A stretch of 64,000 nucleotides of DNA, from IMG/VR virus record IMGVR_UViG_3300002123_000001; one strand, written 5' to 3'. The notes beneath the pieces were generated by a model. The model ran no database searches. It worked only from the letters and a program-made list of their open reading frames with translations, and had not been told where the DNA came from. Within the stretch, counting starts at the first letter, position 1, and each line of letters opens with the position of its first letter. Made by a program: the position numbers and the translations under genes. This DNA is from a virus. Of this stretch, positions 1 through 40,293 are shown in pieces.

Positions 1-45
1 TCGGTGGGCGACGTGCTGTTGCACGTCGCCATCTCCTTCAAGTGA
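1..45 (+). CDS. 3' end of a plus-strand gene that starts left of the window (partial)
   Basis: Frame 1 reads ...SVGDVLLHVAISFK then TGA at 43-45; GC-rich third positions; followed by hairpins. Confidence 0.45.
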   Translation, partial: SVGDVLLHVAISFK

Positions 46-80
46 TGACGGGGCCTTCGGGCCCAGGCCCGTAAGGGGCC
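7..80 (+). terminator. Three tandem GC hairpins at the end of the partial gene
   Basis: GGCGACGTGC-TGTT-GCACGTCGCC (7-30), GGGCC-TTCG-GGCCC (51-64), GGCCC-GTAAG-GGGCC (66-80); no U tract. Confidence 0.5.
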
Positions 81-83
81 CTT

Positions 84-130
84 CACTAGCCACAAATATC
101 CTAGCCGATTAGGCATAAAAGCTGTGGAGG
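84..130 (+). promoter_or_regulatory. P1, cassette promoter motif
   Basis: CTAGCC 86-91, CACAAA 91-96, 17-nt spacer, CATAAA 114-119, 4 nt, GTGGAGG 124-130, ATG 137; same layout at 7 other plus-strand sites. Confidence 0.6.
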
Positions 131-136
131 TAGAAC

Positions 137-607
137 ATGAAGACGAGGCAATGGGCACACCCATTCGATAGGTCTCTGAAGGATGAGGAGGTACAGGCGC
201 TGGGGAAGGACCCCAATGCAACGTACGGGGTACAACCGTCGTCCGACGCCATCGGCGGGTACTTCGGCATGGGGTGGGTGTCGTACTTCAAAGATCACGA
301 GACGGGCGAGGTGTACGGGGTGCACTGCTCAGACGGCGTATACGGTGGTAAAGGGTCCCACCACCCCAAGCACGAGGTGTGGATGCACACCGCCTTCCAT
401 ACCATCTCCGAGGTGATGTGCGAGAAGGGAGGCAGCGATCTCTCCATGCTGGATTGGAACCTGATGTCCAACTACACGAAGATGTGGATGGACGTAGGTA
501 AGGCGGCCGGCGAAGCCCCTGGCGTGGTGGGCACATGCAAAGGCATGGAGGTCGTGGTCAAGGAGGGCATTCCACCGGTGGTTGGTGAGCCACCAAGCAT
601 AGCGTGA
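137..607 (+). CDS. hypothetical protein, 156 aa
   Basis: ATG 6 nt after GGAGG; own promoter motif and own tandem hairpins; no family recognised. Confidence 0.75.
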   Translation: MKTRQWAHPFDRSLKDEEVQALGKDPNATYGVQPSSDAIGGYFGMGWVSYFKDHETGEVYGVHCSDGVYGGKGSHHPKHEVWMHTAFHTISEVMCEKGGSDLSMLDWNLMSNYTKMWMDVGKAAGEAPGVVGTCKGMEVVVKEGIPPVVGEPPSIA

Positions 608-612
608 TTACG

Positions 613-646
613 GCGCCCTGAAGGGCGCAGGGGGCTTCAAGCCCCC
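613..646 (+). terminator. Tandem hairpins after 137..607
   Basis: GCGCCC-TGAA-GGGCGC (613-628) and GGGGGC-TTCAA-GCCCCC (630-646); no U tract. Confidence 0.55.
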
Positions 647-648
647 GT

Positions 649-701
649 CACTATCCACAAAAACGTGGTGGAATAGGGCATAAAAACAATGAAGAAGGGA
701 C
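649..701 (+). promoter_or_regulatory. P2, cassette promoter motif (long-leader variant)
   Basis: CTATCC 651-656, CACAAA 656-661, N17, CATAAA 679-684, then ATGAAGAAGGGAC variant box; real SD GGAGG 735-739. Confidence 0.55.
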
Positions 702-745
702 ACGACCTTCCTTAGAAAACCAACAACGTTCTGTGGAGGAACACC

Positions 746-1129
746 ATGTACATCCGTAAGATCGAGAACCGGTTCGAGACCAGCACCAACGGCAAGGACT
801 ACACCTCGTTGAACGAGCCGCTGCCGGCGAAGATCATGCGCTGCTTCGAGAAGACTGATGCGCGGACAGTCTACTGCGCGTCCAGCTTCTTGGGAGTGAA
901 CGAGGCCCACATGATCACCCCCCTCGATGGGAAAACGTCAGCATGGGCCACCGAAGCGCTTCCGGCGCGCACCCCCACCCGGGTGCGGTACGTGCAGGTT
1001 CGCAGCCACGCGGACACCGAGGCCGAGGTGTGGTGGCTGTGGGCCGGGTTCACCTTCGTGTGGATCTGGGTGCTGCTCATCTACGCGGCAGCGGCCGCTG
1101 GCAGCGCCAAGAGCGACACCGCGACGTGA
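746..1129 (+). CDS. hypothetical C-terminally membrane-anchored protein, 127 aa
   Basis: SD GTGGAGGAACACC 733-745 then ATG; C-terminal hydrophobic helix WWLWAGFTFVWIWVLLIYAAAAA. Confidence 0.75.
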   Translation: MYIRKIENRFETSTNGKDYTSLNEPLPAKIMRCFEKTDARTVYCASSFLGVNEAHMITPLDGKTSAWATEALPARTPTRVRYVQVRSHADTEAEVWWLWAGFTFVWIWVLLIYAAAAAGSAKSDTAT

Positions 1130-1152
1130 ACAACGACACCCGCAAGGGTGCA

Positions 1153-1166
1153 GCCCCTTCGGGGGC
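1153..1166 (+). terminator. Hairpin after 746..1129
   Basis: GCCCC-TTCG-GGGGC. Confidence 0.5.
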
Positions 1167-1172
1167 CGTTCG

Positions 1173-1231
1173 CTACCCCCATTTCAACGCCTGCAAAAGT
1201 GGGGGTAAAGAAGAGATAACAACTGTGGAGG
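1173..1231 (+). promoter_or_regulatory. P7, orphan cassette promoter with no ORF behind it
   Basis: TGCAAA 1192-1197, N17, GATAAC 1215-1220, 4 nt, GTGGAGG 1225-1231; no ATG/GTG at SD distance. Confidence 0.5.
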
Positions 1232-1269
1232 GAAAAGCCCGCGTTGTTGGTCCCCCCGGCTTGAGTCGG

Positions 1270-1304
1270 CTGCCCAGGTGTTCCTCCACCTCCTTCCTGG
1301 GCAG
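1270..1304. other. Hairpin CTGCCCAGG-N17-CCTGGGCAG whose loop carries CCTCCACCTCC
   Basis: Perfect 9-bp inverted repeat; 1277-1289 is the exact reverse complement of 733-745. Confidence 0.8.
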
Positions 1305-1311
1305 TCGGCTC

Positions 1312-1329
1312 GGCCCCTATCTAAGGGCC
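1312..1329. terminator. GC hairpin between convergent units
   Basis: GGCCC-CTATCTAA-GGGCC, 5 nt from stop of 1335..1715. Confidence 0.45.
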
Positions 1330-1334
1330 TTCTT

Positions 1335-1715
1335 CTAGCCTTCGATTTCGGTGAAGGCCAAGCCGGTGATTGCACAGACGTATGGGGCTCCAGTCGCCTC
1401 TCGGTACTGAACCAGCATGTTCTCCGTGATGGCCTGATACTCTCCCCAGTTCAGGTCCTTTGGGACTGCGCATCCATACTGCCGCAGCCCCCATAAACTC
1501 ACGGCGCAGTTTGCCTGCAGGAAGTAGAACCCGATGACGGCCATCCCCTTCCCACTACTCCAGGTGACACCTGAGAAACGCTCGTGCCCGCACCCACCAC
1601 ATAGCCACGTTGAGATGCCGTTGGGGTTGGTGAAGCAGAACTCACGGCGCCTGCAACATGGGCAGGGGTCAAGAGGTAGCCGAGGCTCTCTTTGCTCCAG
1701 GTCTGGACTGGGCAC
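1335..1715 (-). CDS. zinc-ribbon-like small protein, 126 aa
   Basis: GTG 1715 with AAGGAG upstream; CPCC...CGGC motif; good codon bias from there to stop; overlaps upstream gene by 47 nt. Confidence 0.55.
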   Translation of the reverse strand: MPSPDLEQREPRLPLDPCPCCRRREFCFTNPNGISTWLCGGCGHERFSGVTWSSGKGMAVIGFYFLQANCAVSLWGLRQYGCAVPKDLNWGEYQAITENMLVQYREATGAPYVCAITGLAFTEIEG

Positions 1716-1956
1716 GTGCCCCCTTCTCCTTGTTGACGAAGCCGCGGATGGCCTCGACGGCGTGCTTCTTGTGCTCGTAGTACCTGCCGAACCCATCCTT
1801 CCCGGAGGCGTGCTTGGTCTGGTACGCAATCCAGCGAGCGAGGAGGGGCTTTGGCATCATGCGCTCCTCCAAGTCGGCGACCACCTGCAGAGAGTAGGTG
1901 ACGTACCACATACCATCGCGCAGGTCAGGAGTCAGAGTCAAGCTTCCGATCTTCAC
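1669..1956 (-). CDS. hypothetical protein, 95 aa
   Basis: ATG ORF; N-terminal 80 aa protein-like. Confidence 0.6.
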   Translation of the reverse strand: MKIGSLTLTPDLRDGMWYVTYSLQVVADLEERMMPKPLLARWIAYQTKHASGKDGFGRYYEHKKHAVEAIRGFVNKEKGARAQSRPGAKRASATS

Positions 1957-2146
1957 GATACTTCTCCTTCAGTTCGTAGTACCTCACTGACGCGGAGTAC
2001 CCGCGGTACAGCAAGAAGCTGATGCTTGCGCCATTGACCGCGTAGATAAACCACGGCGGACTCGTAGTAGAAAGCACGATAGTCATTATCGCAATAAGCC
2101 CAGCAACAACGTACAGGACTAGCATGTTGATCAGTTCAACGAGCAT
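1925..2146 (-). CDS. small membrane protein, 73 aa, two hydrophobic helices
   Basis: Internal ATG 2146 just after stop of upstream gene; LINMLVLYVVAGLIAIMTIVL and WFIYAVNGASISFLLY. Confidence 0.6.
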   Translation of the reverse strand: MLVELINMLVLYVVAGLIAIMTIVLSTTSPPWFIYAVNGASISFLLYRGYSASVRYYELKEKYREDRKLDSDS

Positions 2147-2160
2147 ATGACCCCGTACCG

Positions 2161-2370
2161 TCACCCGGACCTCCGGATACTTTCCTTCACTGCGAAGTAC
2201 GCCGACACCACGCTGGGAGCCATGACCAGAAGGCACGCAACCACCACGGTCTTCTGGACACTCGAGGCTTTGGAAGTAATGAGCACACAGATCACCGCAA
2301 TCGATGCTACGAACCCAATGACCATGGTGGCCAAGTTCACCCACATCTCGTCTCTATCCGCCCTGTTCAT
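2161..2370 (-). CDS. small membrane protein, 69 aa, two hydrophobic helices
   Basis: WVNLATMVIGFVASIAVICVLI and VVVACLLVMAPSVVSAYFAV; ATGA overlap with upstream gene. Confidence 0.65.
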   Translation of the reverse strand: MNRADRDEMWVNLATMVIGFVASIAVICVLITSKASSVQKTVVVACLLVMAPSVVSAYFAVKESIRRSG

Positions 2371-2612
2371 CAGTTCTTCCTCTCCTTAGCCGGATTGTAG
2401 TTGCTGAAGACCACCCCGAACATCTTGTACATGTGCCGAGCTCGTTCGATAGAGCGTTGGAGCTCTTCGAGCCCCTCTTGTCGGGCTATAGCCTGTCGTA
2501 TCGCATCACTCACCAAGAGGATGGCGGCCAGGTGCTCAGCTGCATCACCCTCGGCGTTGACGATGACGTCGAGCAGCTCCTGAGCCAAGCTCGTGATTCG
2601 GTTGTTGGCCAC
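2370..2612 (-). CDS. hypothetical helical protein, 80 aa
   Basis: GTG 2612 five nt after AAGGAGG; longer ATG start would run through promoter P5. Confidence 0.55.
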   Translation of the reverse strand: MANNRITSLAQELLDVIVNAEGDAAEHLAAILLVSDAIRQAIARQEGLEELQRSIERARHMYKMFGVVFSNYNPAKERKN

Positions 2613-2636
2613 AACCACCTCCTTTGCCGCTGTTGT

Positions 2637-2681
2637 TATACCGCAAAGTAGCGAGTACTTGTGGCATAAAAGAAGTGGAGG
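2637..2681 (+). promoter_or_regulatory. P5, cassette promoter motif
   Basis: TATACC 2637-2642, CGCAAA 2642-2647, N17, CATAAA 2665-2670, 4 nt, GTGGAGG 2675-2681. Confidence 0.6.
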
Positions 2682-2688
2682 AACAACC

Positions 2689-2880
2689 ATGAGCAACAAG
2701 GCAAGAGAAGAAGCTAAGTTGGTGGATGCTGTCTTCGAAGACGGCACATGGATAGCGCGCGTCAGTCACCGCCAAGTGCGGGAGTACCTGGTGGGGATCG
2801 CCTCCACCCGGGAAGAGGCGATCAGAAACGCCTTCGCGCGCGTCACCATGCGCGCGCGAGGAGCGCAGCAGGGCTGCTGA
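2689..2880 (+). CDS. hypothetical protein, 63 aa
   Basis: ATG 2689 after GTGGAGGAACAACC; lone plus-strand gene between minus-strand genes. Confidence 0.65.
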   Translation: MSNKAREEAKLVDAVFEDGTWIARVSHRQVREYLVGIASTREEAIRNAFARVTMRARGAQQGC

Positions 2881-2884
2881 ATGG

Positions 2885-2917
2885 CGCCGCGCAAGCGGTG
2901 CGGCCCCACCCGGGGCC
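2885..2917. terminator. Tandem hairpins between convergent genes
   Basis: CGCCGC-GCAA-GCGGTG (2885-2900) and GGCCCC-ACCC-GGGGCC (2902-2917). Confidence 0.55.
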
Positions 2918-2933
2918 TTCAGCTAGCCCCACT

Positions 2934-3407
2934 TCACTCTTCTTCGAGTGACTCGAGAGAGACCATCTCTACAGAGTATTCGCTGTAGTAGGAGTTGTCG
3001 CACCCATCCTGCTTCTTGCGACGCTCCGCTGGTCTTCCCGCCATCTTGATGGCCCGTGGGGTGAACAGCTTCACCTTCTCACGAACGTAATCGGGATCGA
3101 GGTCCAGCTGCTCGCACGCGCACAGGAAGCTGGTGAGCTGCATCCCCTCTTGCTCACGCTGTATCCACCAAGGATGCCCTGGCTTCTCCTCGAACAGCCA
3201 CGTGTAGGCGTTGTTGGCCAGCTCGAGCTGCTCGAGACGGCTGCTAGAGCGGTAGAGCACCCAGTCGTGCGCAGCGCGACGAATGAGCTCAAGAAGCAGA
3301 GCTCGTGCGTGTTCAGCCTCGTAAGCTGCATCCAGCGGCTCTGGTCCCCATGAGGACTCATCTACCGCTGCGTCTTGTTCCTCTGCCAGCTCTTCCTGCG
3401 ACGGCAC
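2934..3407 (-). CDS. hypothetical protein (minimum extent; frame stays open and protein-like up to 3587)
   Basis: First canonical start after upstream stop is GTG 3407; helical C-terminal domain, acidic tail. Confidence 0.5.
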   Translation of the reverse strand: MPSQEELAEEQDAAVDESSWGPEPLDAAYEAEHARALLLELIRRAAHDWVLYRSSSRLEQLELANNAYTWLFEEKPGHPWWIQREQEGMQLTSFLCACEQLDLDPDYVREKVKLFTPRAIKMAGRPAERRKKQDGCDNSYYSEYSVEMVSLESLEEE

Positions 3408-3583
3408 CTTTACAGGAGCAGGAGTGGGCTGAGGTGTGGGGCGTGGGCCCCACAGTAGCTCCAGCGTCTCAAGTATCTCGGCCCCAAACGACTCTAAGAG
3501 GTCGTCCCTGCCTAGCCCCTTGGCTATCTTCGCGACTACCCGAAGCGCGCCGAAGGCTACTTCTTGAAGCTGTTGGTTGTGGG

Positions 3584-4480
3584 TCAGACCACGGAGATCT
3601 GAACTTCGGATCCCAAGATATACGTCACGTACGGGATCTGGACGATTGTCTTGTCTCGGCGCGACGCACGCAACGTGGTCGTTCCTGCTTTCAACCCCCG
3701 CAGCGACAACTGCGTCTGGTTTGCTGTCAACGACACCACTGTCTTGTCGCTCATCTCCCACGTCACGTCGGACAGCGCCGTCCCCTCGAGGAGGATGCCA
3801 CTCGACGTGCGGACGGATGGGGTGATCGAAAGTGTACTTCCAATCGATAGCTGAGTCGGAAGTGCCTCCAGGTAGGAAATGGAGCTCACCACTGCGAAGA
3901 GCAGATCTGGCAAGTTCACACTCGAAGAGTCCGGTACGGAAACCGTTCTCCCTTGGTCTTCCCAAGCCTCCACTGTCACTGAGTACTTCGCGCATCGGAT
4001 GAGGTCTATACAGGCGTACCCGCTGCCGTCGGTCCGAATCGCCCTCTTGTCAGGGAGGACTCCTGCCTGGTCTAGCAGAACTGGACCGAATGCTCCAGTG
4101 AAGATGATGTCCAGCCCGCTGTGCGCTTGACCCGTCACCGTCCTGAAGTATCCAGACGCCCGGCACAGCAACGGGTCCCTCGAAACAGGTCTGTTGAGCT
4201 CCTGTGCGTACACCTGAAATGAGTTGAGCAAAGGCGCCCCGTTTGGTCCCTCTTGTACAGAGATGAGCTGCGGTTGTTGTACCGATGCCTTGAACTTGTA
4301 GAACCGAAGGCTGTACTCGAGGGTGTACAAAAGGAACCCAGCCCTACCCGCAGAGTCGGTGGTCCCCTCGGTGTAGAGCATGGTCCCACCCTTGTCGTAG
4401 ACGCGTACGAGCACCCCCGACACCGGCTCCCTCGTCTCGGAGTTCAACACGTACACGTCGACTTGCTGGTAGCTGGCCAT
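3584..4480 (-). CDS. virion fibre/decoration-like protein with C-terminal Big_2-like Ig domain, 298 aa
   Basis: C-terminal LSIGSTLSITP...VTWEMSDKTVVSL...GLKAGTTTLRAS resembles bacterial Ig-like group 2; ATGA overlap upstream. Confidence 0.65.
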   Translation of the reverse strand: MASYQQVDVYVLNSETREPVSGVLVRVYDKGGTMLYTEGTTDSAGRAGFLLYTLEYSLRFYKFKASVQQPQLISVQEGPNGAPLLNSFQVYAQELNRPVSRDPLLCRASGYFRTVTGQAHSGLDIIFTGAFGPVLLDQAGVLPDKRAIRTDGSGYACIDLIRCAKYSVTVEAWEDQGRTVSVPDSSSVNLPDLLFAVVSSISYLEALPTQLSIGSTLSITPSVRTSSGILLEGTALSDVTWEMSDKTVVSLTANQTQLSLRGLKAGTTTLRASRRDKTIVQIPYVTYILGSEVQISVV

Positions 4481-5529
4481 CAGATGCTCCTGCGCTCGGC
4501 GTAGACGACGTTGGGGACCTGCACAGTGAAAACGTCGTCCATCGTACCGAAGTCATCCCCCAAAAGCGGGAAGGACTGCACCCCCTGGTCTTCAGGGGCC
4601 ACGATGTCCCTCACGATGTCCGTCCCCGAGATGGACACCGTGTACTGAACCCCCCTCACCAAGGTGAACTGCACGTTACCGTTACGGTCCGTGACCTTCG
4701 TGTCCTGGTAGCCAGTAACCAACTTGCCCTCCACCAAGCTGCCACGCGTGGGCGAATAGACGCTCACCCGGCGCCCAGTAAGGGGGCGACCGTCGGACTT
4801 TACCAGGTAGAGGTAGCCAACCACCGTGCTGGCCTGCGTGAGCCCCATGGACCCGGTGACGGGCAGCGGCAGACTGAACTCGCTCGCCGTCCCCAGCGCC
4901 TGGTTGAAGAGGCGTGTGCGGTAGTAGCTGTCCTGCGTCCCCCGCAGGTCGACGAACCGGTAGGTGGCCCTCCCGTTGATGATGTTGATCCTGGCGTCCT
5001 GCCCCACACCCTGCGAGCTGGGCAGTTCCATGGGTAGGTTGAAGAGGGCTGCAGCCTCCCCGCCCACCACCTCGAGGACTGCCCCCGTGCCCGGACGAAC
5101 ACCTTCCAGTACCAGCAGAATCTCACCGGTGGTCGCCACCTGGGCCACGTAAGCCCTGAAGCGCCCCACCCCTGCAGCTGTGAGCTCCGCCGCCGCCTCC
5201 GCGTAGGTAATGGGGTCTGGCCCCGCCAGCACCACCTCGATGTCCTCGCTGTCGTCCAGGCGAAGAAGGAAGCTGGTGCCAGCTGCAAGGACCTGCGGCC
5301 CCACCACTGGCACCGCTGGCTCATCCGGCGCGTCACGAGGCACGCGTGCCGGGCGCCAAGCATCAGAGGTGAGCTCATAGTACGGACCATTGGCAGTGGA
5401 GTCAGACCTCCACACCTGAATCTGGTCAAAGCCTTGTACTTCTTCCTCACGCACTACCACGGTGAGGGTGACGACCTCGGAGATGGCCGCTTCATCTCCT
5501 ACGATCGGCTGGATGATGATGGTGCTCAT
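4480..5529 (-). CDS. virion fibre-like protein, 349 aa, with one IN-like repeat unit
   Basis: Beta-rich; aa 85-165 match the repeat found 5x in the sheath gene. Confidence 0.7.
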   Translation of the reverse strand: MSTIIIQPIVGDEAAISEVVTLTVVVREEEVQGFDQIQVWRSDSTANGPYYELTSDAWRPARVPRDAPDEPAVPVVGPQVLAAGTSFLLRLDDSEDIEVVLAGPDPITYAEAAAELTAAGVGRFRAYVAQVATTGEILLVLEGVRPGTGAVLEVVGGEAAALFNLPMELPSSQGVGQDARINIINGRATYRFVDLRGTQDSYYRTRLFNQALGTASEFSLPLPVTGSMGLTQASTVVGYLYLVKSDGRPLTGRRVSVYSPTRGSLVEGKLVTGYQDTKVTDRNGNVQFTLVRGVQYTVSISGTDIVRDIVAPEDQGVQSFPLLGDDFGTMDDVFTVQVPNVVYAERRSI

Positions 5530-5538
5530 GCGAGTATT

Positions 5539-5760
5539 CTACTCGCTGCCGGTCAGGAATGCCTCGATTTCATCCACCAGCAAAGCGGACGCTTGCTTCG
5601 TGGTCTCATCCTGCAGCCGCTGAGGTCCATTGCGCCCCTTCAGGATGTTCTGCGCAAGCTTGACCTGGTCTTCAAGACGGCGCCGGTGCTTGTCCCGCCA
5701 TTGCTTGGTGGCCACCTCCAGCTCATCCAGAACCTCGTCCCGTCTCTGTTTGTCCGTCAT
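5539..5760 (-). CDS. small charged coiled-coil protein, 73 aa
   Basis: ATG ORF; first gene after the 242-nt non-coding gap. Confidence 0.65.
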   Translation of the reverse strand: MTDKQRRDEVLDELEVATKQWRDKHRRRLEDQVKLAQNILKGRNGPQRLQDETTKQASALLVDEIEAFLTGSE

Positions 5761-5823
5761 TTGTCACCGTAACGCTGAGCGCTGTAAGCCCGACGTTTTG
5801 CGCAGGGCCGTCGTGGTGGGCGA

Positions 5824-5849
5824 GTCTCGGAGTCAGCCGAGCCTGGTAA
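5824..5849. repeat. 26-nt hairpin element, copy 1
   Basis: GTCTCGGAGTCAGCCGAGCCTGGTAA; stem CTCGG/CCGAG. Confidence 0.85.
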
Positions 5850-5902
5850 AGATTGAAAGATTGTGAGCTGGGCGCGGCGCGCGATCGATTCCGAAGTCTG
5901 CA

Positions 5903-5927
5903 GTCCCGGAGACAGCCGGGTCTGGTA
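5903..5927. repeat. 26-nt hairpin element, copy 2
   Basis: GTCCCGGAGACAGCCGGGTCTGGTA; stem CCCGG/CCGGG (compensatory change). Confidence 0.8.
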
Positions 5928-5973
5928 TGTGCTGTGAAGTGGCGAACAAGAGCGGGCCGGGGATGTGGTTCAA

Positions 5974-5999
5974 GTCTCGGAAACAGCCGGGCCTGGTAA
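5974..5999. repeat. 26-nt hairpin element, copy 3
   Basis: GTCTCGGAAACAGCCGGGCCTGGTAA; 3 nt from the rnhB stop codon. Confidence 0.85.
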
Positions 6000-6002
6000 G
6001 TA

Positions 6003-6647
6003 TCAGCAAAACTTGTAGCTGCGGCGATGAATGGGGCACATCCCATGTAGGCGAATGCCCTCTGCGTGCTTTGGGGTACCGTAGCCCTTGTTGCTCTCCC
6101 AGTCGTACTGAGGATAGCACTTGGCGTACTCCAGCATGTACCCGTCACGAGTGGTCTTGGCTACTACGCTAGCCGCGCTCACCGCCGGAACAATAACGTC
6201 TGCCTTCGGCACCAGCACGGGCTTGATGCTGCTCCACGACGGCAAGTTCATCTTGTTGCCGTCCATCACCACCACGTAGGTGGCTTCTGGTGGGAGCGTT
6301 CCAATCAGGTGCTCTGCCACACTTTGGTTCAAGCGGCTGAGGGACACGGTCACGCTCTCCTCATCCAAGAGAGCAGCCTCACAGCTAAGAGTAAAGACGG
6401 GGATGCCTTGCTCCCGAAGGGTTACAACGGCCTTCTCCCTGCGCAGCTCCGTGAGCTTCTTGGAGTCGCGTACTCCGTCGCAGCGCCAGCCGCAGGGGGT
6501 GATGGAACCCCCCACGACTAGCGGCCCAGCCCAGGCGCCGTACCCTACCTCATCAAGCCCGATGATGACGTCTGGACGCACCTCGTGCTCGATTACGTAC
6601 AGCGCCAGGCGCGCTTGGAAGTAGTCCTTACTCGAGGGCTTGCTCAT
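6003..6647 (-). CDS. rnhB: ribonuclease HII
   Basis: GLDEVGYGAWAGPLVV, DSKKL, VVVMDGN, KADVIVPAVSAASVVAKTTRD, GYGT..H motifs of RNase HII. Confidence 0.85.
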   Translation of the reverse strand: MSKPSSKDYFQARLALYVIEHEVRPDVIIGLDEVGYGAWAGPLVVGGSITPCGWRCDGVRDSKKLTELRREKAVVTLREQGIPVFTLSCEAALLDEESVTVSLSRLNQSVAEHLIGTLPPEATYVVVMDGNKMNLPSWSSIKPVLVPKADVIVPAVSAASVVAKTTRDGYMLEYAKCYPQYDWESNKGYGTPKHAEGIRLHGMCPIHRRSYKFC

Positions 6648-7047
6648 AGAGCCACTCGTACAACCGGTTGAGACGAGGGTCCATGCTGCTCATCTCCGTG
6701 AGCGCATCGAAGGCTTCCTTCTTCGCCTTCTTGGTGAACGCCTTCGACCGCTTCCCCGTCTCCTTCCCGCTGTCCGCGCCGAACACCGTGGTCTGGGGCT
6801 GTTGAGGCTGCGCCACTCGGTAGTGAGACCCAGACCTGGACACGAGGACGAAGTTGATCTCCCCGCGCTGCTTCATACCCTTGAGCACCTCGCCCGCTGT
6901 GTCCGGAGCGGTACCCGGCACGCATGCCTTCACGTACTCCAGAAGGTCGCTCATCGTAAAGTCGACGACACCGCTGCGCAGAGCATCTTCGCAGAAACTC
7001 TTGATGACTGCAGCAATACTCGTCTCTACTTGTCCCTCATCGGCCAT
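6628..7047 (-). CDS. hypothetical protein, 139 aa
   Basis: ATG ORF, 20-nt overlap with rnhB start. Confidence 0.65.
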   Translation of the reverse strand: MADEGQVETSIAAVIKSFCEDALRSGVVDFTMSDLLEYVKACVPGTAPDTAGEVLKGMKQRGEINFVLVSRSGSHYRVAQPQQPQTTVFGADSGKETGKRSKAFTKKAKKEAFDALTEMSSMDPRLNRLYEWLYEQALE

Positions 7048-7453
7048 CTTGTAACTCCTCTCGTAGTGCGTCCAGCTTGTCCCACACGGCCCATTGGAGG
7101 CGCTTGTCCTCTCTCATAGCAGTAAACGCCAGATGTTTCACCACCTGAATGAGTGCCACCCTCTGGTCCGTGAGGAGCTTGCGAATCTGCGCACTCGCCT
7201 TTCTACGGTACAACCTCTGCACGTCCACCATCAGCTCGGGGAGTGAAAGAAGCTGCGGGCTGAGCGCTGGGTGGTGCGCGCTGTCAAGTATCTCAAGCTC
7301 ATGACATGGCCTGTCCGGCCCGCCTATGGACGCTGGTCTGAAGGGCGGCTTTGGGCACTCCTTGTCGGGCGTTACGGAGGTACGTCCGCAGTACCTGCAG
7401 ATGAACTGCGCCTTCCCGCTTGGGCTGGTGGCGAATATGTTTACCCAGCGCAT
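7037..7453 (-). CDS. hypothetical protein with N-terminal CRYC motif, 138 aa
   Basis: ATG ORF; Cys cluster then helical region. Confidence 0.6.
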   Translation of the reverse strand: MRWVNIFATSPSGKAQFICRYCGRTSVTPDKECPKPPFRPASIGGPDRPCHELEILDSAHHPALSPQLLSLPELMVDVQRLYRRKASAQIRKLLTDQRVALIQVVKHLAFTAMREDKRLQWAVWDKLDALREELQDGR

Positions 7454-8013
7454 CCGTCCACCAGCTCGTGGAGCACCTCCACAACCTCGCTATCGTCCTC
7501 TTCAACTTCCGACATGGTTACATCCCCAAGTATGAGGCCGTCCAGTTTGCCATTGATCAATACCTTGAGTGTGAAGTCCAGATCAGTATCTACTCCGTTC
7601 TCCTCCTCACTGTGGATTACCAGCGCACGTGGAACGTCGAACGATACAACCCTGGTGTAGTTGACGCGCTCAAACCCAGAGGTTCGTCTCTCAACGCGAA
7701 CGGTGTCTTGACGGAGTAGCCGAACCTTGCCGTCACGCATAAACTGCGCTACCGCTGCATCTACACACTCCTGCATCTGCACGCTATCAGGCTTGATGCC
7801 ACAAAGAAGCACGTTATGCGCGTTTTCCAGCACAGCAATGGCGTTCCGCACTTCTTCAGCGATGTGCACTTGTTCAACAAGCTCGTAGCGCGTGCCCGCT
7901 TCATCACCTTCTACCGAAGGCCGTCTTTCTTTTACGAACTTCAGGAACCTGGACTTCAGCTTCGCCAAGTCCAGCTCCTCCAGATTCTTCAGTGATTCTT
8001 CCAGGTAGTCCAT
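7441..8013 (-). CDS. hypothetical acidic protein, 190 aa
   Basis: ATG 8013; upstream part of the long ORF is Cys/Pro-rich and overlaps the next gene. Confidence 0.6.
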   Translation of the reverse strand: MDYLEESLKNLEELDLAKLKSRFLKFVKERRPSVEGDEAGTRYELVEQVHIAEEVRNAIAVLENAHNVLLCGIKPDSVQMQECVDAAVAQFMRDGKVRLLRQDTVRVERRTSGFERVNYTRVVSFDVPRALVIHSEEENGVDTDLDFTLKVLINGKLDGLILGDVTMSEVEEDDSEVVEVLHELVDGCAG

Positions 8014-8236: not shown

Positions 8237-9402
8237 TTCAGGAGAAGCCCCCCTGCCAGCTCCATCAGGTCGGACTTTCGTTCATCGTCTGTCAGCAGGT
8301 CGGCGATCTCCGCCACCGCGTTGCTGGCAAACCATAGGTTGATCACCGGAGCACCGCTGACGTCGTGCTTGATGGGAGGCAACGTGGTGGACCTCTTCCC
8401 CTCGATGACCGCTTCAATACTCAAGATCTCGTCCTGCGTGAGCTTCCCTGCGAAGTAGTTCTGCAGCCGCGGCCAGGAGATGGCTTCCGTCATCGCCTTT
8501 GCGACCACCTCCAAGAAGGTGTTGACCGAAGCCGTGCTCAACGATTCGATCACGGCGTCCTTCACTTGGCCCTTAGCGGCATCGATCATCTTCTCAATGG
8601 TCTCGTTGCTGATGGTGGAGCTCATCTCATCCAGGTCCTTGCGGGCCGCGCCGTTGTGCCGCTTGGACATGATGGGCTTCACCACGCAAAGACTCGTGCC
8701 ACCACCGTTGAGCCGCAGCACGTTCATCTTCACCTGCATCGAGCCAGCCCCGAAGTCGCTGTTGCTGAAGCTGCACCCGAGCGCAATAAACTCCCCAGCC
8801 GCTGGCTCGAACACGTGTGGCAGCGCTGAATGGAACGTGAAGCTCAGGTCAGACCCCGTAGCGGCCACAGGCATCGCCCCGAAGCTGTAGCAAGCTGTGG
8901 CGAACTCCACCAAGAGCGGCGGGGTGGCGAGGTGTATCTTGAACGATGGGCTGACGAACCCGCGCACCTCATCTGATACCGTTCGGTTGATGAAGGACGC
9001 ACGCCTACGGAACGAGCGCTGCTTGAACTGGCTCTTCTTGAAGCGCTCGTTCAGCAAGTACACCAACTCTTGCCACTCCCACGCCTCACTGGATGAGACT
9101 AGGGTGTTCACAAACGAGGCGGGGATACTCACCTCAGACGCCATCTGCCGCAGGGCATGCGCGTGAACCCGAAGGTTAATCTCGGCGCCGTTGATCGTGA
9201 CCTTGTACTTCGGGGTGGCTCCAGCCGCATCCTGCACATCGAAGTGCATGTCGTCGACGATGACGTCGTGGTCCACGATCACCATCGTTCGAACCTTGTC
9301 CCAAACCTCAGCCGCCCTCTGCTGGCTGAACTTGAACCTGTGGCTCAAGGTGTCCTGCGCTTTCCTAGCCGCTTCTGAATCTAGTGCTTTCTGATAATCC
9401 AT
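8233..9402 (-). CDS. DUF932-like protein, 389 aa
   Basis: Central FSNSDFGAGS...RLNGGG...KRHNG resembles the DUF932 signature (NSxDGSxA...R.vCsNG...rH); ATG 9402. Confidence 0.45.
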   Translation of the reverse strand: MDYQKALDSEAARKAQDTLSHRFKFSQQRAAEVWDKVRTMVIVDHDVIVDDMHFDVQDAAGATPKYKVTINGAEINLRVHAHALRQMASEVSIPASFVNTLVSSSEAWEWQELVYLLNERFKKSQFKQRSFRRRASFINRTVSDEVRGFVSPSFKIHLATPPLLVEFATACYSFGAMPVAATGSDLSFTFHSALPHVFEPAAGEFIALGCSFSNSDFGAGSMQVKMNVLRLNGGGTSLCVVKPIMSKRHNGAARKDLDEMSSTISNETIEKMIDAAKGQVKDAVIESLSTASVNTFLEVVAKAMTEAISWPRLQNYFAGKLTQDEILSIEAVIEGKRSTTLPPIKHDVSGAPVINLWFASNAVAEIADLLTDDERKSDLMELAGGLLLK

Positions 9403-9406
9403 ACGC

Positions 9407-9434
9407 AAAAAGGCGGCAAGTTGCCTCGCCGCCT
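9407..9434 (-). terminator. Intrinsic terminator after the sigma gene
   Basis: Minus strand: AGGCGGC-N10-GCCGCCT then TTTT; ends 4 nt before ATG 9402. Confidence 0.65.
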
Positions 9435-9456: not shown

Positions 9457-10221
9457 CTACTTGTACTGCTCGTACTTCTTGATGATGCTGCCCTTCAAGC
9501 GGGACACCTTCGAAGGGCTCAAGCCCAATCGCTGAGCAAGCACCCCAGTGCTGGTGACCGGCATCCCGCCCTGTTGCGGGTACATCAAGTCGTACAGCCG
9601 CTGCTCTTCTGGCCCCAGGCTATGCCGGAGCAACCCAATCACCTCAGACTCGCGCTGCGCCGCGATCGGTACTGGGTCGCTCTCGAAGGGAGTTGATAGA
9701 ACGTCCCTCCGCTGCATCCCCTGAATCTGCTGTATCCTACGCGCCGTGAGCTGCCTTTGCTGCGGCAGCCCAATGTTCATGCGCTGGGCAATCTGCTCGT
9801 GTGAGGGCTCAGCCCCAAGCTCGTCTGACAGCTCCTCTTGTGCAGCCTGAATCTTGCCGATGTAGCCCGCTGGCGTCTCAGCAATGCGCGCCATGTTCTG
9901 ACGCTTCTTGTTCGTGCGGCTCACCCGGCGCAGCTGATTGTGCAAGTGCGTGCTGAACGTGGCCCCACGGTCTGGGTCGTACGTCTTCAACGCGTCGATG
10001 GCCAGATTCATCATGTTCCCACGAAGCCCCACCGCACTGGTCTGCGGCGCCTTGTGGACGTTCTGATGGTGCCTGAACACCGGCTCGAACTGCTGTAGCA
10101 CGGACTTCGTGTTGTCTGGACTTGGGTCCGACTTCCAACGCATCACCAGCTCGTGCTCCGCCTTCGTCCTATCGGCGGCCACCTTCTCCCTCTCTTGGAG
10201 ATATGCGTCGATCGGGTTCAT
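9457..10221 (-). CDS. sigma-70 family RNA polymerase sigma factor, group-3-like, 254 aa
   Basis: Region 2 (YDPDRGATFSTHLHNQLRRVSR), region 3 (LGAEPSHEQIAQRMNI), region 4.2 HTH (STGVLAQRLGLSPSKVSRLKGSIIKKY); ATG 10221. Confidence 0.8.
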   Translation of the reverse strand: MNPIDAYLQEREKVAADRTKAEHELVMRWKSDPSPDNTKSVLQQFEPVFRHHQNVHKAPQTSAVGLRGNMMNLAIDALKTYDPDRGATFSTHLHNQLRRVSRTNKKRQNMARIAETPAGYIGKIQAAQEELSDELGAEPSHEQIAQRMNIGLPQQRQLTARRIQQIQGMQRRDVLSTPFESDPVPIAAQRESEVIGLLRHSLGPEEQRLYDLMYPQQGGMPVTSTGVLAQRLGLSPSKVSRLKGSIIKKYEQYK

Positions 10222-10247
10222 GCTGCTCCGCTTACGAGCGCGCTTCT

Positions 10248-10754
10248 TCAGTGCTCGAGGAGGCGCTTGGTCCGGCTCAGGAGTGTCGGTGCTTCCACCG
10301 GTCTCCGGTTGGCGTTCGCCTGCGGCATCGCATGGCTTGCTTCGTAGTCGCCGGTTGCGGCATGGCTTAGCTGCCCTGCCAGCAGCTTGCGGTCCGCCTC
10401 CTGCGACGGCTTCTTGCCGTCGAAGTGCCGGTTCAGGAACTCCTCGCGCCCTCGTCGGAACTCCTCCAGAACGACGTTCGAGTGGTGTACCGCCGTCCCC
10501 GTCGGGTCGCTCGGCTTCATGTCCGGGTCCCCCCACAGTGCGTCGATGTTTCCTGACGCCCTCCCCTCCGGCTTGGGGTACTGGTCCGGGTTGGTTCCCA
10601 CGGTGCTTCGCCCGTTGTCTCCCGGTGCCTCCACCTCGGCTTGCTTCAGGAAGGCGTACAACTTGTCCGCGTCCTCCTGCGGGTCCGTGAGGGGAAGGCA
10701 GTCGCTCATGCTGCGTCCGTTGTATGCCATGCACGTAGCGTACCACGACCCCAC
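10248..10754 (-). CDS. hypothetical protein, 168 aa, directly upstream of sigma
   Basis: ATG ORF with better composition than the overlapping extension of the sigma ORF. Confidence 0.65.
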   Translation of the reverse strand: MGSWYATCMAYNGRSMSDCLPLTDPQEDADKLYAFLKQAEVEAPGDNGRSTVGTNPDQYPKPEGRASGNIDALWGDPDMKPSDPTGTAVHHSNVVLEEFRRGREEFLNRHFDGKKPSQEADRKLLAGQLSHAATGDYEASHAMPQANANRRPVEAPTLLSRTKRLLEH

Positions 10755-11156: not shown

Positions 11157-11757
11157 ACGGATGCTCCATTGTTACGGACAGTAGTCGCCGTAGGTATTGC
11201 TGCACATCGCCGGGTGCAGTTGACGTCTCGATGAAAGCCATGCCCATCAACGACCCCAGCTTGTGGAGTGTAGATTTTAGATCTTGTATGCGAAGCGCCG
11301 TGCGGAGTATGGCGGTGCACTCGAGGCACTTCTTTATCAAGCGCTCAGGACGATCCAGCAGCTGCACCTGTTGCTGGTACCCTGCCCGCTTCCTGAGCGC
11401 CAAAGCCACCTTGTACGAAGACAGCTTCATGAGCATCGACTTCAAGTACGTGTCGATGTACGTCAGCCCGTCGATGGAGCGGATAAGAACAAGAACTCCA
11501 CTCTCGTGAAGTACGTCCTCTCTACCGGCTGTGTGCATCAGCTGTGGAATGGTGTGCTTGCAGGTCCATTCAAGGACGAAGAACGCACGAAGTATCTGCG
11601 CATCGGGGCTAGGATTGTTCTCTTGGATGAGCTCAGCCAACTCATCCCAGGCTTCGTCGTTGTCCTCGAGGACGAAGATGATGTCCTGGTTGACGGCTCC
11701 CTTAACGGACTGCATGCACGCCCAACAAACGGGGCATGCTCCTTCTGGTGTAGCCAT
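11116..11757 (-). CDS. hypothetical protein with CPVCWAC motif, 213 aa
   Basis: ATG ORF. Confidence 0.65.
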   Translation of the reverse strand: MATPEGACPVCWACMQSVKGAVNQDIIFVLEDNDEAWDELAELIQENNPSPDAQILRAFFVLEWTCKHTIPQLMHTAGREDVLHESGVLVLIRSIDGLTYIDTYLKSMLMKLSSYKVALALRKRAGYQQQVQLLDRPERLIKKCLECTAILRTALRIQDLKSTLHKLGSLMGMAFIETSTAPGDVQQYLRRLLSVTMEHPYGERTSRSDLPHQ

Positions 11758-11775
11758 GGTTTCCCATGGCTCTTA

Positions 11776-24000: not shown

Positions 24001-24788
24001 ATCGCACCGTGGATTCCCTTACCACCGATGCTTCTTGAGATCTGAGACCCCATGAGCGCTGCGCTGGAGAGCTCACCCATCGACATGTGCTGCCCACCAG
24101 CAAAGGCCCCGGAGGACATCCCCTTCAGAACCATCTGCTGCGTGCCCATGCCGAAGACGCCAGACCCCTTCATCGAGGTCATCATCTTCTGAGCTTCCTC
24201 GAGGGACGTGCCCAGGTCGGTGGCAACCTGCTTGACCGTCTTCAGCATCTCGCGGAACTTCTCGTTGAAGTCCTTCACCGAGCGCACGCTCTCAGACATC
24301 CCCATGCGTCCCATGTTCGACGCCAGCCGACCAAGCTCCTCAAAGGTGACCTGCTCCCCAGAGGGACCGCGCTGCATGGACATCTGCATCATGTCCCGTT
24401 GCATCCCACCCAACTGAGTGGGGGTGAACCCGGCGCCCCCGAACTGGTTCTGGTGGCGGAACGCCTGCCGCATGCTCGCGTCCATCATTTGCTGCTGCTG
24501 GACGCCGTAGGACATCTGCCCCAGCACGCCCCTGCCGATGGCGCTCACGCCGCCCATGAACCCCTGGTTCATCCCCGGCTGGGAGAAGGCGTTCATGGCC
24601 GCGTTCGTGCCGAACTGCATCATCCCCGCGGTGATGTTCTCTCCCTGGGTGGGGACGGGGTGAGTCGTTGCCCCCGGCGCGTAGCCCCCAAACTGGTTGG
24701 AGATCATGGCCGAGTGCTGCATTCCGATCATCGTCTGCTGGTTGAACCCACCAGTGAGCGCGGCAATCTCGGTTGAGGTAATCGGCAT
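21060..24788 (-). CDS. tape-measure-like / internal virion protein, 1242 aa
   Basis: Longest ORF; Gly/Met/Gln/Ala-rich low-complexity plus helical regions; followed by hub/baseplate-like genes. Confidence 0.55.
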   Translation of the reverse strand: MPITSTEIAALTGGFNQQTMIGMQHSAMISNQFGGYAPGATTHPVPTQGENITAGMMQFGTNAAMNAFSQPGMNQGFMGGVSAIGRGVLGQMSYGVQQQQMMDASMRQAFRHQNQFGGAGFTPTQLGGMQRDMMQMSMQRGPSGEQVTFEELGRLASNMGRMGMSESVRSVKDFNEKFREMLKTVKQVATDLGTSLEEAQKMMTSMKGSGVFGMGTQQMVLKGMSSGAFAGGQHMSMGELSSAALMGSQISRSIGGKGIHGAMAGVETMTQIGVMRNMGIIGEQDVYNVTGMSGAEGRMALAQQDMERDARFLKSTHGRYFLAATTGKGGNVDQGALQTILSGGASASDIYARGRQNVNKNVYGFLGREGELRGQALAAGGGNIEASFYSMELQKRGIDVNDKDGRGGLALQRIGNMNREEADYMMKKIRNLGRMQTFREEQAGEQQYLKDVETQERKASPEDLMKDIDMARQRVNNELRSFGADLYKTWSAQVDGAIKKMSGEYERRINRNLASTIRAIERGGAGAQSAMVRDLGIGGGSNMDAAFGIARAQATSSYGAPGEREVDRMIFGKYGELKAAGVDLSKVNSVADLGRAQLEAARTAAAFAGGGSVAGGALMGADGSRIRGAMRERLALQGVEGTGGDFLNNFGSFLQGVEGGGGLSAAYAGAATNEERAGLARGMMNAGGGAGLYRDRVRGVGQMFGAGTSRFGSSEEADSVVGRQLMSGLNLQGLAGVGGQPDRTASTILDRGAFLFGRKGAAGQLLGGMRDRVQGAENWWGSGLSYGSAKSIAGAPGSILGAAGGALNYATGGMTAGIVGRAGALAQDYLGGAQQDLTNQLYGQLGQGATSGQLSELNAAFRSDESFKDFQSLVGGSTADRAVAREDMLNKMIKLREGDMKLPSNQIEMARMKGLLMTSEYMDYKMKHQGKEPPADWMDKLGKRFGTSGSSAAGLISAAGGGVGQAQKERLSDMHNQLSQGAMRDMINIGEEIEQIEKSDASPAVKEAARRQRQRAQERAALLGKGAGQEAEGLQANIREYAGLTTGYADADRKRRAGLSLEDLLKVGQEKIRAGFSGTEGAEDVEIATLGMGFRSASRVKGAAGERQYLASQLGAGVSFKDAGKMSAADLAQRVMEETGLSSSDKVGRDRQREFSSRIQEVLSGKGGEVEKAEKLASLRRDFSKDLTLAGQEKQDTKAKETDPNFRMLTTINQSIIDLKDKGIYSELQQLNQRIEKGIKLE

Positions 24789-24809
24789 GGACCTACTCTA
24801 CCACGCCCC

Positions 24810-24865: not shown

Positions 24866-24973
24866 ATGGAACTGATCTTCGCAGTGGAGACCGCTGTAAA
24901 GCTGGTCGCGTTTGCCCTTCACCTCGCCGCGGACGCGCGGGAGAAGAAGCCCGCCGCCAAGGCGGGCGCATAG
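24866..24973 (+). CDS. 35-aa hydrophobic peptide (MELIFAVETAVKLVAFALHLAADAREKKPAAKAGA)
   Basis: Below the ORF-track cutoff; ATG 9 nt after GGAGG; own promoter and hairpins. Confidence 0.5.
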   Translation: MELIFAVETAVKLVAFALHLAADAREKKPAAKAGA

Positions 24974-24985
24974 GCCCGTTGGGCC
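24949..24985 (+). terminator. Tandem hairpins at the end of the 35-aa ORF
   Basis: GCCCGCC-GCCAA-GGCGGGC (24949-24967) and GGCCC-GTT-GGGCC (24973-24985). Confidence 0.5.
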
Positions 24986-24987
24986 TT

Positions 24988-25034
24988 CTATCCCTGCAAA
25001 ACCGAGTAGATACGCGGCATAAGAGCTATGGAAG
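24988..25034 (+). promoter_or_regulatory. P4, cassette promoter motif (long-leader variant)
   Basis: CTATCC 24988-24993, TGCAAA 24995-25000, N17, CATAAG 25018-25023, 4 nt, ATGGAAG 25028-25034. Confidence 0.55.
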
Positions 25035-25074: not shown

Positions 25075-25398
25075 ATGCAGGCACAGCAAGCACTCGAGAC
25101 GGTGGCAGCGCAGAACGCCGGCGTCACCCCCAACAGCGTCACCCGCGCCCCCGAGGCGCCCCCGGCAGCCCCGGGGATGGTGAACCTCGCTCCGCCCACC
25201 GGGATCGCCGCGGGCGAGTCCTACGGGCTCGGACTCGGACTCGGCGAGGGGTTGGGGCGGTCGTTCAAGCCGAGTTCGTTCGGCGAGAACTACAAGACCG
25301 GCCTGAGCAGCGGACTCGGAATGGCCACGGCCGCCATCGCTGGCGGAGTCCTGTGGGTCGGGGGGAAGGCCGTCATCGGCTACTTCTTCGGCGACTAG
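25075..25398 (+). CDS. small glycine-zipper membrane protein, 107 aa
   Basis: AAGGAG 25060-25065; C-terminal GLSSGLGMATAAIAGGVLWVGGKAVIGYFFG. Confidence 0.65.
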   Translation: MQAQQALETVAAQNAGVTPNSVTRAPEAPPAAPGMVNLAPPTGIAAGESYGLGLGLGEGLGRSFKPSSFGENYKTGLSSGLGMATAAIAGGVLWVGGKAVIGYFFGD

Positions 25399-25499: not shown

Positions 25500-25530
25500 A
25501 GAAAAAGTTACGTGTCAGTTACCTTTTTCT
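25500..25530. promoter_or_regulatory. AT-rich inverted repeat with internal GTTAC direct repeats (operator-like)
   Basis: AGAAAAAG (25500-25507) / CTTTTTCT (25523-25530); GTTAC at 25507-25511 and 25518-25522; 6 nt before ATG 25537. Confidence 0.45.
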
Positions 25531-25536
25531 CTTGAA

Positions 25537-37042: not shown

Positions 37043-37059
37043 ACCGGCAGCGTACCACA

Positions 37060-40261: not shown

Positions 40262-40290
40262 GGTATAAGTCCGCCGGCCCTATTGTTCAA
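40262..40290 (-). promoter_or_regulatory. sigma70-like promoter for 40002..40241
   Basis: Minus strand TTGAAC (40290-40285), 17 nt, TATACC (40267-40262). Confidence 0.4.
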
Positions 40291-40293
40291 CAG

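Follow-up and report, generated by a model that had tools for sequence, protein, structure and literature searches.

A promoter-like element repeated before exchangeable orphan genes, and a predicted small RNA behind one of its copies, in a family of large uncultivated phages

Which RNA polymerase reads the promoter-like motif that recurs before the plus-strand genes of the phage record IMGVR_UViG_3300002123_000001 (IMG/VR), and what does the motif do for the genes behind it? The DNA analyzed here, the window, is a stretch of 64,000 nt, ~60% GC and phage-like, whose minus strand bears nearly all genes. It is part of a 191-kb (191,066-bp) metagenomic contig (JGI 3300025322 Ga0209641_10000005; Logan SRR3990168_10907). 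The window and a 10-kb flank on each side were scanned, 82.6 kb in all; negative coordinates designate the left flank. A first-pass annotation of the window had listed eight plus-strand copies of the motif, built from a -35-like box, a -10-like box and a downstream box. The motif is a real promoter-like element, tied to gene starts and co-oriented with the gene. We read it as a promoter with high confidence. That it is a promoter class specific to the phage family, with two boxes in sigma-type geometry, and read by a phage sigma factor is the reading we prefer, with moderate confidence.

All eight plus-strand sites were confirmed, with their boxes at the positions first assigned to them. P1 (84-130) consists of CTAGCC, the -35 box CACAAA (91-96), the -10 element GGCATAAA (112-119) and GTGGAGG (124-130); gene 137-607 has this last box as its Shine-Dalgarno sequence. 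The same -10 element is found in P2 (649-695; CACTATCC, -35 box CACAAA at 656-661, -10 element at 677-684), in P5 (2642-2681; -35 box CGCAAA), and in P3 (24810-24856; CACTATCC, -35 box CGAAAA). GTGGAGG is the Shine-Dalgarno sequence of gene 2689-2880 in P5, and that of a 35-aa open reading frame (ORF), 24866-24973, in P3. P4 (24988-25034) carries CTATCC, TGCAAA, GGCATAAG, and ATGGAAG, and P8 (25852-25891) carries TGAAAA, GGGATAAA, and CTGGAGG. P7 (1192-1231) carries TGCAAA, GATAAC, and GTGGAGG, with no ORF behind. P6 (41482-41520), which heads the operon 41539-42817, has a good -10 element, GGCATAAGA, and a poor -35 box, CACAGT; it had rightly been called the weaker site.

The pattern G[CG]ATAA[AGC]A has eight matches on the plus strand of the window and none on the minus strand, and seven of the eight are sites of the first-pass annotation. 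The pattern GSATAAVANNNNTGRRRG is found five times against 0.02 expected. With the Shine-Dalgarno part left out, AAA-N15-GGSATAAV has six matches against 0.05 expected, all on the plus strand and all at listed sites. In leave-one-out matrix scans, seven of the eight sites rank 8 or better among 127,908 positions; P6 ranks 161. A predictive matrix was built from seven window sites and then run on the flanks. It indicated new sites in the left flank at -1820, -1462, and -577 and a weak one at -7537, each just 5' of a plus-strand gene called independently in the database, and no site in the right flank (10 kb). Scores drop from at least 13.6 to at most 8.5 after eleven plus-strand sites and one minus-strand site. 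The scan of both strands gave three to four new sites before plus-strand genes and a single minus-strand match above 10. The copies in the 82.6 kb number twelve, and most have GC hairpins directly 5'.

Thirty-eight sites, 12 from the window phage and 26 from eleven loci of relatives, give the consensus c-TGCAAA, N15, GG(C/G)ATAA(G/C/A)A, N4, TGGAGG. The spacing from the -35 box to the -10 box is 17-18 nt, in the sigma-70-compatible range. The upstream hexamer CTA(G/T)CC, which had been included in the layout, is present at only about half of the sites, and also occurs 3' of promoterless hairpins, at 2923 and -775. The bare hexamer is frequent (29 on the plus strand, 27 on the minus strand) and occurs without promoters, and it was downgraded as an integral promoter box. 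TAGC(C) recurs just 5' of the -35 box in relatives. A GATAAG 'site' at 11800 on the minus strand was rejected: its letters belong to a TGATAA double stop, with a conserved hairpin behind it. The whole arrangement (11716-11775, minus strand; L112 131-200), which mimics a motif match, consists of the TGATAA double stop, the perfect hairpin AGCCATGG-GAAA-CCATGGCT, and the Shine-Dalgarno sequence of the next gene, and it is conserved in L112, a relative with a 76% identical sigma factor. Another minus-strand matrix match, at 40351, was left unassigned; its score is 8.5, and it has a hairpin on one side and a U-tract terminator on the other.

The description of the motif as a device of the minority strand does not hold. 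A ninth, weaker copy, M1, is located on the minus strand at 2624-2663, with the -35 box CACAAG (2663-2658) and the -10 element GGTATAAC (2642-2635; TATAAC at 2640-2635). It is upstream of AAGGAGG-GTG (start 2612), which heads the minus-strand small-gene operon 2612-1335. Its matrix score is 13.6-15.4, and it is the sole minus-strand match above 10. M1 and P5 are back-to-back, each -35 box lying inside the spacer of the other. M1 is kept in L112, where its counterpart is GGCATAAG. The distant relative L119 uses both strands and has an equivalent divergent pair at 9883/9908.

The motif had also been said to precede almost every plus-strand gene and, in three units at the left end, to give each gene its own promoter. 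The link to gene starts and the co-orientation stand, with two qualifications. First, P7 has no ORF and drives a predicted small RNA, and several plus-strand genes (25537, 41780, 42227, and two in the right flank) have no copy of their own. Second, the units are not all monocistronic: P6 heads an operon of three to four genes and the site at -577 one of two genes. Before gene 25537 (25500-25536) there is an inverted repeat of 9 bp, AAGAAAAAG...CTTTTTCTT, and no clear Shine-Dalgarno sequence; the gene may start at ATG 25537 or at GTG 25567.

The motif is shared with relatives. L129 has 8-9 copies, all on the equivalent of the window plus strand and most just 5' of a called gene. L112 has 4-5 copies. 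L119 has nine on both strands, one of them before the sigma gene; a start codon is found within ~100 nt of each, most matching a listed ORF. Further copies are located near the capsid gene of other relatives.

The genes behind the motif are not shared. None of 14 plus-strand proteins has a homologue in the motif-bearing loci of relatives, whereas proteins of the neighbouring minus-strand operon do have homologues there. None of the ten plus-strand proteins tested against Pfam has a match, and nine of the ten tested against PHROGs (eight of them also tested against Pfam) have none. The lone PHROGs match is the 83-aa protein 41539-41790, the first gene behind P6, to phrog_865, HNH endonuclease (2.4e-9). 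The P5 cassette is present in the window and absent from the same junction in L112. From this one cassette-sized indel and the complete turnover of cargo, we infer recombination at the cassettes. Hairpin, promoter, and ribosome-binding site together form a composite regulatory cassette flanking orphan genes in a hyperplastic region. By eye, some cassette proteins (L104 8452-9039; window 746-1129, 24866-24973, and 25075-25398) look membrane-associated or exported, with a lipoprotein-like signal ending in LTAC and C-terminal hydrophobic helices.

What, then, reads the motif? Primary sigma factors require T at the last position of the -10 element. In the motif this position is A, C, or G in all 38 sites, and because it is never T, the motif is not a sigma-70 consensus promoter. 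A sigma-70 consensus scan of 1-3000 found no site. The layout of the motif, AAA, 14 nt, and then nGG(C/G)ATAA, resembles promoters of group-3 sigma factors (sigma-28). In the open complex of Pseudomonas sigma-28, the promoter is (-36)TCTAAAG(-30) and (-15)GCCGATAA(-8), with A-11 flipped out (PMC12784957). The -10 element of the motif matches this octamer at 5-6 of 8 bases. ATAA, its core, never varies, and two of the four positions before it are always or almost always G. The -35 box has AAA in most sites, with a 14-nt gap to the octamer, and the preceding base is C or G, not T. The motif and sigma-28 (FliA/WhiG, group 3) promoters have in common an A-rich -35 box (AAA), a spacer of ~15 nt, and an 8-nt -10 element in which four G/C bases come before a final ATAA, and neither class has T at the position that primary sigmas require. 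They differ in the genes controlled, which here are phage orphan genes.

A candidate reader is encoded on the minus strand at 9457-10221. It is a sigma-70-family factor of 254 aa with regions 2-4. The ORF 9457-10746 (429 aa) is over-extended, and a separate gene in another frame, 10248-10730, covers the rest. The factor has a Pfam Sigma70_r3 match. Against PDB profiles it matches SigA at 6e-12 and FliA (6pmi, 1rp3), sigma-F, and other small sigmas at ~1e-6. Its best NCBIfam match is FliA_WhiG (2.7e-7, positions 34-218 of the 224-position model). Homologues of this factor are rare. The motif is directly 5' of the sigma gene in four relatives, L112 (76% identity), L119/L122 (40%), L120 (43%), and L121 (33%); no motif was found at the sigma locus of L114 (26% identical). 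The reader would be the host core RNA polymerase carrying the phage-encoded sigma, a role for which we give the factor an even chance. The same promoter on the sigma gene in most relatives would give positive feedback.

Several points weigh against this assignment. The resemblance to sigma-28 promoters is partial: GG(C/G) instead of GCCG precedes ATAA, the -35 box is TGCAAA, without T, instead of TAAA(G), and the spacer is 1 nt shorter. The factor scores 30.5 bits against TIGR02479, far below the family cut-off of 189.6, and over sigma regions 2-3 SigA outscores FliA/WhiG. The sigma sequence by itself gives no hint of this motif in particular. The sigma gene of the window phage is without the motif, and the motif before the sigma gene of relatives is just as compatible with an early sigma gene that the host polymerase transcribes. 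The 38 sites were collected with the matrix itself, so that the consensus is partly circular, and the scan reached 82.6 kb of the 191-kb genome.

The alternative that survives best is that the sites are early promoters of the unmodified host holoenzyme, with the primary sigma or a host alternative sigma such as FliA/WhiG. The phage sigma gene would be one early gene among others, with a product that reads another, later class. A small orphan gene with a strong promoter and a terminator to itself is typical of early or host-takeover genes, and the promoters of PeSL elements, to which we return below, are early promoters of such kind. A motif before the sigma gene, as in the four relatives, is the expected look of an early-expressed sigma. 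In phage SPO1, host sigma-A is used for the early genes before a switch to phage sigmas (PMC13401047). The -35 box is loosely TTGACA-like (CTGACA at -577, CTGCAA elsewhere). Metagenome-assembled genome bins disagree on the host (Deltaproteobacteria, Acidobacteria, Chloroflexi), so the host may have an unusual primary sigma.

Two observations speak against the host holoenzyme. One is the -10 element, which never has T at its last position. The other is a separate, primary-sigma-like set in the same genome, the extended -10 element TGGTAnnnT on the minus strand. It is located exactly 6 nt before the ATG of three minus-strand genes (three against 0.12 expected), at 24786-24803, 10728-10745, and 37040-37057; the gene at 24803 is a 1242-aa tape-measure-like gene. 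This distance implies leaderless mRNAs. The motif is distinct from what precedes most minus-strand genes, some of which carry TGGTAnnnT; the first-pass annotation had not seen the motif in the minus-strand intergenic gaps inspected. Further TGGTA/CGGTA sites in intergenic DNA are found before the gene for the capsid (58850) and before those at 35762 and 46745. The non-primary -10 element and the separate primary-like class lead us to prefer the phage sigma over the host polymerase, only modestly. We consider reading by the unmodified host holoenzyme rather unlikely.

Solved sigma-28 promoter complexes suggest, by analogy, where transcription would start. At five sites (P1, P5, P3, -1462, and -1820), the downstream box, reported as a further promoter element, is the Shine-Dalgarno sequence, with ATG 6-10 nt later; elsewhere it is where a longer leader begins. 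At P2, P4, and P8 the true Shine-Dalgarno sequence is ~25-45 nt past the box, and the leader, with the box at its head, folds into a hairpin 3-4 nt after it begins. If the octamer occupies -15 to -8, as in sigma-28 promoters, +1 would be the third base of that box, which would give five mRNAs a GGAGG start and leaders of 11-15 nt. P2, P4, and P8 would have a leader of 41-55 nt opening with a protective 5' hairpin. The predicted 55-nt leader of P2, with a 5'-proximal hairpin, precedes gene 746-1129, whose own ribosome-binding site is GTGGAGGAACACC. The 45-nt leader of P4, also with a 5' hairpin, precedes gene 25075-25398. The leader of P8 opens with the hairpin GGGAGACG/CGUCUCCC, and its gene, 25928-26650, has its own AGGAGG. 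The site at -577 and P6 would have leaders of 22-28 nt with their own ribosome-binding site. The distance from ATAA to GGAGG is fixed also in relatives whose proteins are only ~40% identical, and a start on the third base of the box would explain this rigidity.

The conserved block, which spans the putative start, can also be read in another way. GG(C/G)ATAAxAxxxxTGGAGG (~20 bp) could be the promoter of a sigma-independent phage RNA polymerase, single-subunit or of another non-canonical type, with the AAA box secondary. T7-type promoters run through +1 into a G-rich start, and the motif block can be likened to them. Most of the information is in one contiguous block, from ~-15 to +5, and with 43% of the genome inspected and several large proteins without annotation, such an enzyme could be encoded. 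We nevertheless regard it as very improbable. The DxDGD motif is absent in the nine large proteins tested from the 82.6 kb, and there is no polymerase match among the proteins run through Pfam or PHROGs. The fixed 17-nt spacing to the upstream box is typical of sigma factors, and a sigma gene is present and linked to the motif.

The units were described as promoter-gene-hairpin cassettes, and GC hairpins do follow the plus-strand genes. Every cassette gene has one or two of them within a few bases 3', without a U tract and with loops such as UUCG, GCAA (GNRA), UGAA, CUCG, and similar ones. On the plus strand, two hairpins with UUCG and GUAAG loops at 46-84 close the upstream gene. Pairs are found at 610-648 (UGAA and UCA loops) 3' of gene 137-607, at 1134-1170 (GCAA and UUCG loops) 3' of gene 746-1129, and at 2882-2930 3' of gene 2689-2880, the last followed by TTCAGCTAGCC without a promoter behind it. 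A single hairpin at 24972-24990, 3' of the 35-aa ORF, directly abuts P4. A long hairpin at 26651-26700, 3' of gene 25928-26650, has four G.U pairs in the plus sense only and folds at -38.9 kcal/mol in the plus sense against -26.7 in the minus sense. The contrast drawn with the minus strand is also seen: canonical terminators, each a hairpin with a U tract, are located on that strand at 9380-9415, 3' of the sigma gene, and at 40290-40316, 3' of gene 40418-41446. The terminator at 40290-40316 is preceded by a large GC hairpin (40345-40392).

RNA folding shows nine of ten hairpin regions to be stabler in the plus sense, with totals of -282 against -236 kcal/mol; G.U pairs number 17 in that sense and 6 in the other. 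This bias is a signature of selection on a plus-strand transcript and supports the direction of transcription implied by the motif. The GC tetraloop hairpins that end each unit would act on the plus-strand RNA as terminators or 3' stabilisers. Hairpins without a U tract are poor intrinsic terminators in tested systems, which counts against the first of these roles, and both the start sites and termination are inferred, a further weakness of the promoter-to-hairpin reading.

The unit behind P7 is of a different kind. It is predicted to be a small RNA of ~115 nt (1227-1345, plus strand) with no credible ORF. It has a perfect 16-bp stem (1263-1278/1296-1311) with a 17-nt loop, UGUUCCUCCACCUCCUU, and then a second hairpin followed by UUCUUCUAGCC, a tail that a scan flagged as terminator-like. 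The fold is -56.6 kcal/mol (z -3.6), and where the plus-sense stem has its two G.U pairs, the minus strand has C.A mismatches. Rfam at gathering thresholds gave no match in the window and only a chance-level match in 1100-1400, and a tRNA scan found nothing. In L112, an ORF-less copy of the motif follows the last cassette gene, convergent with the end of the small-gene operon. The unit behind it has a 20-bp hairpin of entirely different stem sequence, a loop that, as in the window, starts with UGUUCCUCC, and the unit end AUUUUUUAGCC. L129 has an ORF-less, highly structured unit at the equivalent position. As a conserved structured element, the predicted RNA is well supported by these comparisons. 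This predicted RNA at a conserved position, behind a motif copy, is the most novel element of the locus, and the first-pass annotation had not seen it. A small ORF opposite the hairpin was rejected, as it is found in L112 only and is absent in the window.

The loop of the small RNA is the exact complement of GUGGAGGAACA, the ribosome-binding site common to four cassette genes. Among predicted duplexes over ~95 gene starts, the best four are those of these cassette genes, with 11-nt perfect matches, and six of the top eight involve motif-driven genes. In L112, the 5' segment GUUGUUGUUCCUCC of the RNA is a 14-nt complement of the cassette leader GGAGGAACAACAAC. As a hypothesis drawn from this complementarity, the exposed loop of the P7 RNA would pair with the shared ribosome-binding site and damp translation of the cassettes. 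L129 argues the other way: its complementarity between small RNA and leader is 8-9 nt, a length reached by 12.5% of shuffles and not above chance. Co-variation of the L129 small RNA with its leaders was not significant and was dropped. L129 has a second ORF-less motif copy on the minus strand (4750-4885). The structured RNA behind it, ~100 nt long with a CCCUUCCCUCCUC stretch and the final hairpin GGGGGCUCCC-GAAA-GGGAGCCCC, is possibly a further small RNA.

That the motif is mainly something other than a promoter, namely a protein-binding operator, an mRNA translational operator that overlaps the ribosome-binding site, or a recombination linker kept by copying, is the least probable explanation: the block does include a ribosome-binding site and has a complementary small RNA, cassettes are gained or lost at junctions (P5 in the window, absent in L112), and PeSLs have been proposed as recombination sites, but features of a promoter are the AT-rich ATAA core where the genome has 60% GC, an upstream box at a constant distance, and strict co-orientation with the gene that follows, the motif occurs at P2, P4, P8, and P7 without adjacent Shine-Dalgarno function, and spacing kept in relatives whose proteins are only 40% identical indicates selection, not recent copying.

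Combined with the reading by a phage sigma, these elements allow a tentative model, which we put forward as a speculation that is unlikely to hold in every part. The exchangeable orphan genes would be served by a self-contained circuit of a sigma-28-like phage sigma, a self-promoted sigma gene, and class-wide translational feedback by a small RNA. The phage sigma, with sigma-28-like specificity, would transcribe the cassettes, and mRNAs would begin exactly at the Shine-Dalgarno sequence. The same promoter class would drive the sigma gene in most relatives. The loop of the small RNA would mimic an anti-Shine-Dalgarno sequence extended to match the shared site GUGGAGGAACA. If the model is true, a gene dropped between cassettes inherits signals for transcription, translation, and repression together. 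Should the small RNA pair with the shared site, this would be regulation in compact form, in which a single RNA controls an entire class of phage genes that are transcribed separately.

A second repeat, (TA)CCAGRYYCRGCTGNCTCYGRGACT, is found on the minus strand, with five copies against 0.02 expected (5823-5846, 5902-5925, 5973-5996, 46763-46786, and 57647-57670). Each forms a 5-bp hairpin, and the stem co-varies (CTCGG/CCGAG, CCCGG/CCGGG, CCCAG/CTGGG). Three copies are in tandem, ~75 nt apart, after the RNase HII gene, and one is just past the capsid stop.

The phage belongs to a large, uncultivated family of ~185-195 kb genomes from soil and sediment, almost without annotation. Megablast of positions 1-8000 against GenBank phages gave no match. 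By capsid, the nearest GenBank phages are 26-28% identical (Vibrio phages D69, D181, and D148; Salmonella phage Arash). Capsid relatives in IMG/VR comprise more than 250 contigs, many of 185-195 kb, and the best 80 show 63-100% identity. No relatives were found in IMG/VR for the 240-aa plus-strand protein, the tape-measure N-terminus, the 298-aa protein, and the 429-aa sigma ORF. An exact 19-mer of the motif had no match in IMG/VR either, a collection that does not contain this part of the genome. Loci L123-L128 are capsid relatives in bins labelled Deltaproteobacteria, Edaphobacter, Anaerolineales, and Desulfatibacillum. Some of these contigs are 170-176 kb, and they are probably whole phage genomes binned with unrelated hosts. 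For such genomes, a defined promoter class is a handle for splitting them into regulatory classes, and the candidate pairing of sigma and promoter is testable with purified components.

Parts of the system have counterparts in known phages. SPO1 gp28 and gp34 and T4 gp55 are phage-carried sigmas that define a temporal class and have a promoter consensus distinct from the host type. The window phage is similar in having its own sigma-family protein and a promoter consensus of non-host type. It differs in that the sigma gene itself often has the motif before it, which points to autoregulation and not to a simple early-to-middle relay; the link between sigma and motif is here predicted from the sequence. 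The c4 RNA of phages P1 and P7 is a small structured RNA that masks a ribosome-binding region. Like such antisense or trans-acting RNAs, the predicted RNA has an exposed segment complementary to a phage ribosome-binding region. Unlike them, its predicted loop matches a site shared by several separately transcribed cassettes, and it would be under the same promoter class as its putative targets.

The cassettes had been called moron-like. A moron is a foreign gene of atypical composition that has its own promoter and terminator, is set against the neighbouring operon, and is expressed from a prophage. Like the morons of lambdoid prophages, the cassettes are single genes with such signals that run against the flow of the neighbouring operon. 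In contrast to morons, they share one conserved regulatory module, and their GC content, 0.60-0.62, is the same as in the genome. Signs of lysogeny are absent as well: no integrase or repressor was found in limited Pfam and PHROGs searches (~26 proteins) or among precomputed Pfam matches of the flanks. Morons are described as being without conserved flanking sequences (PMC2839356). A conserved module with swapped cargo fits the PeSL elements better.

The PeSLs (promoter-early stem-loop) of T4-like phages combine a stem-loop, a promoter, and a Shine-Dalgarno sequence; they lie beside orphan genes in hyperplastic regions and bring about modular shuffling (PMC2839356, PMC4122927). In both systems, an intergenic module of stop codon, GC stem-loop, promoter, Shine-Dalgarno sequence, and ATG is repeated before small orphan genes in variable regions, and the module is kept between related phages while the flanked genes are swapped, inserted, or deleted. 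The PeSL promoter is a strong sigma-70-like early promoter, whereas the motif here is not sigma-70-like. In the window phage the stem-loops are 5' of the -35 box, clear of the promoter boxes; its family, GC-rich and uncultivated, is probably unrelated to the T4-like phages; and one cassette is predicted to encode a small RNA. Because of these differences, the cassettes are not filed as members of the PeSL family. PeSL cassettes, not morons, are their closest known analogue. The cassettes provide a second independent example, outside T4-like phages and with another promoter type, of conserved terminator-promoter-ribosome-binding-site cassettes, which let orphan genes be swapped without disturbing their neighbours.

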